Source: Candidatus Scybalocola faecigallinarum (GTDB lineage Bacteria > Bacillota > Clostridia > Lachnospirales > Lachnospiraceae). From it: DNA of 64,000 nt. The translations under genes were made by a program, and so were the position numbers. The DNA lies in assembly GCA_018711005.1 (NCBI GenBank), contig DVIT01000015.1:1801-65800 (forward strand). The letters are read 5' to 3'. Below are positions 1,896-2,027 of the stretch, piece by piece (the first letter of the stretch is position 1; each line of letters opens with the position of its first letter). A model generated the notes under the pieces. That model did not search any database. It saw only the letters and a program-made list of their open reading frames with translations, and was not told where the DNA came from.

Positions 1896-2027
1896 TTAGC
1901 AGCAGATAACAGTTAAATAGCCGCCGCAATAAGATGAAAAACTTACTACATCTTCTAAATTGGAAGATTCATCAAATTTTTTGATTTCTTCCATTTCTTT
2001 TTCAATTAATTTAATCTCTTTCTCCAT
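1896..2027 (-). CDS. lanA: Lanthipeptide precursor peptide, 43 aa: MEKEIKLIEKEMEEIKKFDESSNLEDVVSFSSYCGGYLTVICC
   Basis: ATG at 2027 with GAGGT SD upstream, TAA at 1896-1898. Acidic helical leader and a Ser/Thr/Cys-rich C-terminal core (S29, S31, S32, T39; C34, C42, C43). It lies immediately upstream of lanM and is below the ORF-track size cut-off. Confidence 0.85.
   Translation of the reverse strand: MEKEIKLIEKEMEEIKKFDESSNLEDVVSFSSYCGGYLTVICC

Follow-up and report, generated by a model that had tools for sequence, protein, structure and literature searches.

The 43-codon open reading frame (ORF) at positions 1896-2027 (-) of the analyzed window, a 64,000-nucleotide stretch of a contig from Candidatus Scybalocola faecigallinarum, is a real and conserved gene for a small, putative lanthipeptide precursor. 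It belongs to an undescribed but widespread gut-bacterial module (LytTR regulator, AgrC-type sensor kinase, peptide, LanM enzyme), in which the peptide and the kinase sensor diverge together between strains, the pattern expected of a strain-specific signalling system. The original prediction had proposed an unannotated 43-aa precursor with an atypical leader and a compact core, and the features it described are confirmed by our analysis. Its interpretation of the ORF as a LanM substrate matured without the double-glycine route, and as a possible pheromone, is supported, although modification and signalling are inferred from sequence alone.

The ORF starts with ATG and translates to MEKEIKLIEKEMEEIKKFDESSNLEDVVSFSSYCGGYLTVICC. 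The leader comprises codons 1-28 (1944-2027), the predicted core codons 29-43 (1899-1943), and the stop codon lies at 1896-1898. The last 15 residues, SFSSYCGGYLTVICC, contain four dehydratable residues (S29, S31, S32 and T39) and three cysteines (C34, C42 and C43), ending in Cys-Cys, and the only GG is at residues 35-36, as originally described. A Shine-Dalgarno sequence, GAGGT (2036-2040 (-)), lies inside the 3' end of the upstream kinase gene (2011-3351 (-)), with GAGG 9 nt upstream of the ATG. The ORF overlaps the kinase gene by 17 nt, from which translational coupling had been proposed. However, the overlap is allele-specific, being 17 or 26 nt in some alleles and replaced by a 4-6 nt gap in others.

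On the minus strand, the peptide gene is preceded by a LytTR-family response regulator (3451-4176 (-), 241 aa from the GTG at 4176; Pfam Response_reg plus LytTR, PF04397 at 7.5e-12) and by the AgrC/ComD-type histidine kinase (446 aa). The kinase has about six hydrophobic segments in residues 1-217 according to hydropathy analysis and a C-terminal GHKL domain (Pfam HATPase_c_5, PF14501, at 1.1e-24). The gene for LanM starts 180 nt downstream of the peptide gene and runs off the window start (1-1715 (-), first 571 codons; Pfam DUF4135 at 2e-93). A public contig identical to the window over 12 kb supplied the full LanM of 1003 aa, which matches TIGR03897 at 720 bits, aligns end to end with LicM2 (6ST5) at 2e-79 and keeps the YKPRS, DMHFENI, VDLE, RNT, SHG, WCHG and CLCHG motifs, indicating that its kinase/lyase and zinc-binding cyclase residues are intact. 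Apparent lanM pseudogenes were rejected, because in one related locus the split is a run of N, and in another several genes are broken in a long-read assembly while a further locus carries the same allele intact. After lanM come ispG and polC. No other candidate precursor was found near LanM, and the 96-aa and 83-aa ORFs after lanM in some strains look spurious or repeat-derived. Upstream of the regulator lie an Rpn-like protein, seven FtsX/MacB permease genes, one ABC ATPase and a paralogous kinase/regulator pair (the kinase is 42% identical), followed by the ribosomal protein/secY operon.

Since the region holds dozens of ORFs of 30 aa or more, the length of a 43-codon ORF is not significant by itself, and the absence of a database family might also suggest a chance reading frame in the kinase-lanM spacer. 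The comparative data refute this possibility. Had homologous loci lacked the ORF or interrupted it, the prediction would have failed, but every related locus fetched has an uninterrupted ORF of 43-47 codons in the same place. These comprise nine alleles in two sister species, one of them Candidatus Scybalocola faecavium (the only relative returned by a scan of a genome collection), and a tenth allele was found in RNA-derived contigs. The pairwise dS is about 1.2, whereas dN/dS is 0.26 overall, 0.31 in the leader and 0.14 in the core, indicating purifying selection. Between the two closest alleles, the changes at S31, C34, G35 and G36 are synonymous. The GAGGT sequence is kept in every allele, even where the surrounding kinase sequence is hypervariable, and the ORF is conserved in length, start and stop across sequences with saturated synonymous divergence. 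As for the description 'unannotated', public gene callers did call this ORF on 16 contigs, and the only name carried by any relative is 'hypothetical protein [Frisingicoccus sp.]'.

The peptide gene is followed by a predicted intrinsic terminator or attenuator (1806-1888 (-)), with perfect 18-bp arms at 1868-1885 and 1819-1836 and a U-run at 1806-1818. The RNA fold is -38.5 kcal/mol (z = -3.9, 0 of 200 shuffles as stable), and the arms are identical in the sister species while the loop differs. A small alternative hairpin at 1860-1889 is not conserved in the sister species. Contigs assembled from four chicken-gut metatranscriptomes start at 1800, 1857, 1899 and 1920 and end at 4178, 4260, 4263 and 4366, which corresponds to the regulator-kinase-peptide unit, and only scraps at low depth fall on lanM. 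This fits an operon ending at the hairpin with limited read-through, although the contigs carry no strand information, their depth is a poor measure of expression, DNA carry-over is possible, and one contig extends past the predicted promoter, to 4366. Upstream of the regulator, we found a candidate LytTR box, ATGGCGAAT-N11-ATGGCGGAT (4322-4350 (-)), which is unique in the window (0 expected by chance) and lies directly upstream of a weak promoter predicted by a promoter scan (AGGACA-17-CATAAT, 4319-4291). The homology of the upstream region between the two species begins exactly at the first repeat. The function of the box is inferred, and its repeat spacing is 20 nt start-to-start, whereas 21 nt is typical for LytTR sites. 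No matching repeat box was found before lanM or the transporter operons. Among the distant loci described below, one (L027) has a TGTGGACA pair 21 nt apart upstream of its regulator, which gives weak support, and two others (L025 and L029) gave nothing.

The peptide has no Pfam match at E <= 0.01, including PF04604, and no NCBIfam match at E <= 10. A profile search against PDB chains gave only coiled-coil noise in the leader, a word-indexed protein search found only two near-identical relatives, and a metagenome scan with a LanM alignment found nothing. The family appeared through kinase homologues, an exhaustive HMMER search and a DNA pattern scan. Kinase homologues at 50%, 49% and 33% identity, which sit in unrelated genomic flanks, keep the order regulator, kinase, peptide, LanM, and their peptides end in ...QEDVVSFSELCGAYLTILCC, ...EEFVSITALCSALLSLVCC and ...AINSISICTQFLTIICC. 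The HMMER search of 1.84 billion representative proteins returned 17 further peptides of 43-69 aa with the same signature. The DNA pattern for the core found 42 metagenome loci, of which 34 have a homologue of this kinase directly upstream and/or a LanM directly downstream; the other 8 lack the leader motif and are chance hits. Clustering of the neighbouring ORFs showed only four recurrent genes, namely LanM, the kinase, the regulator and, in 11 loci, an uncharacterised soluble protein of about 185 aa with no family before the regulator. The family signature consists of a leader ...[AG]G[DN]L..E[LIMV].E[IV]... (E-x-x-E-I in brief), with E11 and E14 invariant and I15 present in at least 90% of sequences, and a core [ST]x[ST]xxC-xx-[FYHL][LF]T[ILV][ILFV]CC-stop. 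C34, C42 and C43 are invariant, and positions 29, 31 and 39 are always Ser or Thr, with swaps at each. Position 32, the fourth dehydratable residue originally counted, is free to vary. The family points to three rings rather than the 'two or three' first proposed.

These conserved positions and the adjacency of LanM, which is seen in all related loci, support the ORF as the precursor of the neighbouring enzyme. An alternative is that the peptide acts unmodified, or as a thiolactone or disulfide peptide, and that LanM is a downstream effector of the two-component system, as reported for the LanM-like CA_C0082 next to agr in Clostridium acetobutylicum. LanM-like genes downstream of agr operons were shown not to be needed for signal synthesis (Humphreys et al. 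2023, PMC10301443), and lanM here lies behind the strong predicted terminator and is poorly covered in RNA-derived contigs. However, the Clostridium proteins are 670-728 aa and lack zinc and dehydratase residues, whereas this LanM is full-length with all catalytic motifs, no AgrB is present in the module, and the Ser/Thr swaps at three fixed positions are hard to explain without dehydration. We therefore regard this alternative as very unlikely.

The original prediction also held that maturation probably does not use the C39 double-glycine route, and this is supported as far as context can show. The residues at the leader/core junction are VV, II, VL, IQ, FV, GR, IY and others, with none conserved. 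No LanT-sized ORF with a C39 domain exists in the 64-kb window (the only ORF above 500 aa is a hybrid sensor kinase) or downstream of LanM, and no transporter or protease recurs next to the module in the distant loci, although one encoded elsewhere in the genome is not excluded. We also considered that the GG inside the supposed core is the true cleavage site, which would release a 7-residue peptide (YLTVICC) with one methyllanthionine ring. In the window's genus, positions 35-36 are GG or GA, the canonical C39 motif (PMC10885120), and a 7-mer is the size of typical autoinducing peptides. However, across the family these positions are SA, SP, TQ, TG, GT, TP, GE, GH, GN, SG, SE, AL, TH, QT and NT, the hydrophobic residues expected at -4, -7 and -12 are not kept, and S29, S31 and C34 upstream are conserved like ring-forming residues, so that this reading is contradicted by family conservation.

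The pheromone interpretation is strongly supported by population genetics. Among six strains of the window's species, nucleotide identity is 99.9% for the regulator, 99.1% for the regulator-kinase spacer, 99.8% for kinase codons 1-46, 68.4% for kinase codons 47-210, 69.8% for kinase codons 211-end, 71.5% for the peptide, 95.4% for the peptide-lanM spacer and 98.1% for lanM. The divergence of the kinase-peptide cassette within the species equals that between species (about 67% identity) and stops at the stop codon of the peptide gene. Scans over 13 kb showed no other variable segment, the paralogous kinase and the transporters being conserved. The kinase search listed about a dozen alleles at 59-69% identity, and the nine whose sequences were retrieved share a near-identical first 46 residues. 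Allele similarity crosses the species boundary, since the SISGLCGG type occurs in both species, and the identities of sensor and core correlate (Mantel r = 0.72, p = 1e-4), although linkage confounds this correlation. In this lineage the whole kinase is divergent from codon 47 onward, not only the sensor, and the pattern could be that of a co-inherited recombination cassette. An independent lineage, represented by three loci (L035, L039 and L052; kinase about 30% identical to this one), gave a cleaner picture. Amino-acid identity there is 100% for the regulator, 100% for kinase residues 1-40, 67-71% for sensor residues 41-210, 97-98% for the catalytic half of the kinase, 67-90% for the peptide and 99% for LanM. 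These are two separate islands of divergence with a conserved stretch between them, the signature of agr specificity groups and comQXP pherotypes, which argues that the peptide is the ligand of the kinase.

The main competing explanation, which we consider less likely but possible, is that the peptide is primarily an antimicrobial lantibiotic of the lacticin 481/salivaricin A type, sensed by the kinase mainly to switch on production and immunity as for nisin or SalA, with allelic diversity reflecting a bacteriocin-immunity arms race rather than private communication. The scaffold [ST]x[ST]xxC...[ST]..CC is matched at the pattern level only, SFSSYC..T..CC comparing with TITDDC..S...CC of SalA1 (ATITDDCPNSVFVCC) and TISHEC...T..CC of SA-FF22 (PMC4162386). 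SalA is both a lantibiotic and an autoinducer, and its locus carries SalXY, described in the same paper as an immunity ABC transporter; permease, ATPase and paralogous kinase/regulator genes likewise lie just upstream in the window. However, these transporters are not part of the conserved module, as the distant loci have different flanks and no recurrent transporter. Neither the transporters nor the second kinase are polymorphic, although an arms race would predict variable immunity. The acidic residue of the ring-A lipid II-binding motif (TxS/TxD/EC) is also not conserved, positions 32-33 being SY, ES, GL, EL, AL, VG and others, and the residue before C34 being Y, S, L, T, G, C, N and others across the family. 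An antimicrobial role in addition to, or in place of, signalling remains possible.

We therefore favour, with moderate confidence, the reading that the ORF is the structural gene (LanA) of a small class II lanthipeptide that acts as an autoinducer. In this view, the regulator, kinase and peptide are transcribed as one operon from the promoter preceded by the direct-repeat box, and the hairpin limits read-through into lanM. LanM would bind the acidic helical leader (with invariant E11 and E14 and near-invariant I15), dehydrate Ser/Thr 29, 31 and 39 and add Cys34, Cys42 and Cys43, giving a compact three-ring hydrophobic peptide of about 15 residues, with rings 29-34, 31-42 and 39-43 inferred from the lacticin 481/salivaricin A scaffold. 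The leader would be removed by something other than a cluster-encoded C39 transporter, probably by generic proteolysis with trimming up to the first ring; about one third of lanthipeptide clusters lack a protease (PMC10885120). The released peptide would then be sensed by the polytopic sensor domain of the kinase, which would phosphorylate the LytTR regulator acting on the repeat box and close an autoinduction loop, and matched, ancient alleles of peptide and sensor would make strains of one species respond to different signals. Our data establish that the gene is real, constrained and, as judged from RNA-derived contigs, transcribed, that the four-gene module is conserved, and that peptide and kinase sensor are jointly hypervariable, whereas modification by LanM, ring topology, export, the cleavage site, induction of the operon and ligand-receptor pairing are inferences. 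A broader hypothesis, about as likely as not, is that gut Lachnospiraceae carry a widespread, undescribed class of quorum-sensing module in which LanM takes the place of AgrB in making a three-ring thioether autoinducer read by an AgrC-type kinase, with multiple ancient, trans-species specificity groups maintained within single species, and with export and leader removal using no cluster-encoded transporter or protease.

Lanthipeptides that induce their own synthesis and Agr/Com-type peptide sensing systems are both known, but neither a conserved four-gene module joining them nor the agr-like structure of matched peptide and sensor alleles was found in Pfam, in NCBIfam or in the open literature (subscription journals and supplementary files excluded), where we searched for lanthipeptide pherotypes, LytTR-linked lanthipeptides and the core strings. 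If our reading is right, the module is a compact, testable communication system in abundant but poorly studied gut anaerobes of chicken and human, and offers a natural series of peptide-receptor pairs for studying how polytopic kinases recognise thioether peptides. It would also be a case where a RiPP enzyme tolerates diversifying substrates while staying 98-99% conserved, add a family of very small lanthipeptides whose leader is removed without a double-glycine site, and show that annotation pipelines miss a recurrent 43-56 aa gene.

Among known systems, the salivaricin A/SalA1 system of Streptococcus salivarius and S. pyogenes (salAMTXYKR), part of the lacticin 481 group of class II lantibiotics, likewise has a small LanM-made peptide with an N-terminal [ST]x[ST]xxC ring motif and a C-terminal Cys-Cys, which induces itself through an adjacent two-component system and has natural allelic variants, SalA1 to SalA5 (PMC4162386). 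However, SalA has a GG leader, a SalT C39 transporter and SalXY immunity genes in the cluster, and SalKR is of the HisKA/OmpR type. Characterised lanthipeptide clusters in general fall in the HisKA/OmpR clade (PMC10663231), whereas the kinase here has no HisKA hit, the pair is of the HATPase_c_5/LytTR (Agr/Com) type and the gene order is regulator, kinase, peptide, LanM. Staphylococcal agr (agrBDCA) shares a polytopic AgrC-type kinase, a LytTR regulator, a small cyclic peptide (here predicted) encoded next to the kinase, a direct-repeat promoter box (here a candidate) and hypervariability confined to the peptide and the kinase sensor, with flanks conserved. In our module, however, no AgrB family appears among the called genes of any locus, the peptide gene follows the kinase instead of preceding it, and the peptide ends at Cys-Cys with no C-terminal tail, so that a thiolactone made by AgrB is not possible and cyclisation would be by LanM thioether formation. 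The agr operons followed by LanM-like CA_C0082 in solventogenic Clostridium (PMC10301443) show a similar physical and regulatory linkage of an Agr-type two-component system with a lanM-family gene in Clostridia, but agrBD are present there and the LanM-like proteins are truncated, whereas here a Cys/Ser/Thr-rich precursor replaces AgrD beside an intact LanM. In the comQXP pherotypes of Bacillus subtilis, a modifying enzyme, a modified peptide pheromone and a membrane kinase are also encoded together, with peptide and kinase sensor polymorphic within a species, but ComX is isoprenylated by ComQ and comQ itself is polymorphic, whereas here LanM is 98-99% conserved and only the kinase and peptide vary.

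Upstream of the regulator and kinase genes, we found an array on the minus strand (window 5764-17469) consisting of seven FtsX/MacB-type permease genes in repeated 370-aa plus 440-aa pairs, one ABC ATPase gene (11871-12542) and a second kinase/LytTR regulator pair (9690-11755). The second kinase is 42% identical to the first, and, unlike the first pair, it is conserved between strains. The array could serve export or immunity for the peptide, although it is absent next to the distant modules. Between this array and the regulator gene, window 4559-5545 (-) encodes a 328-aa protein with a weak match to the Rpn family of nucleases/transposases and a run of GLEQ repeats. 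The length of this protein varies between strains (320-342 aa), and in the sister species a 108-aa ORF takes its place. Repeated GC-rich intergenic elements, which produce look-alike short ORFs, were found at window 17540-17760 and downstream of lanM at positions 13400-13800 of L001 (a public contig identical to the window over 12 kb). Their copy number differs between strains, and this accounts for the only other divergent blocks in the strain comparisons.

The first 46 residues of the first kinase (codons 1-46, window 3214-3351 (-)) are near-identical in the alleles whose sequences were examined and are recognisable across genera (EVW.AYWLFDVP..RRF), whereas divergence starts abruptly at codon 47, suggesting a recombination boundary or a separate conserved function for the first helix. 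A 44-aa ORF at window 3320-3454 (-) bridges the regulator stop and the kinase start. This ORF is called as a gene in one species but not in the sister species and has no family; it is probably spurious, and lies within a conserved 100-nt spacer that may hold regulatory signals.

With regard to the peptide itself, one database variant (protein P0002, from a 940-bp ENA contig) has the leader of the window's peptide with the core SFSSYWGGHLTLIWC, in which two Cys are replaced by Trp. The metatranscriptome contigs (at window 1908-1923) carry the same Y37H and V40L changes but keep all Cys. The Trp version may be an error or a decayed allele. Downstream of the peptide gene, a small hairpin (GCCGAAGA / TCTTCGGC) at window 1860-1889 (-) overlaps the 5' arm of the terminator and could compete with it, although this hairpin is not conserved in the sister species.

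We also compared the window's locus with the distant modules. In 11 distant loci (among them L035, L039, L046, L052, L069 and L071), an uncharacterised soluble protein of about 185 aa, with no Pfam family, is encoded immediately before the regulator, often with overlapping or abutting stop and start codons, whereas it is absent from the window's locus. One distant module, L027, has the direct repeat TGTGGACA twice, 21 nt apart (positions 2201-2229), about 100 nt upstream of its regulator gene, and this arrangement loosely resembles the GTGGCG repeats of the window's candidate LytTR box.
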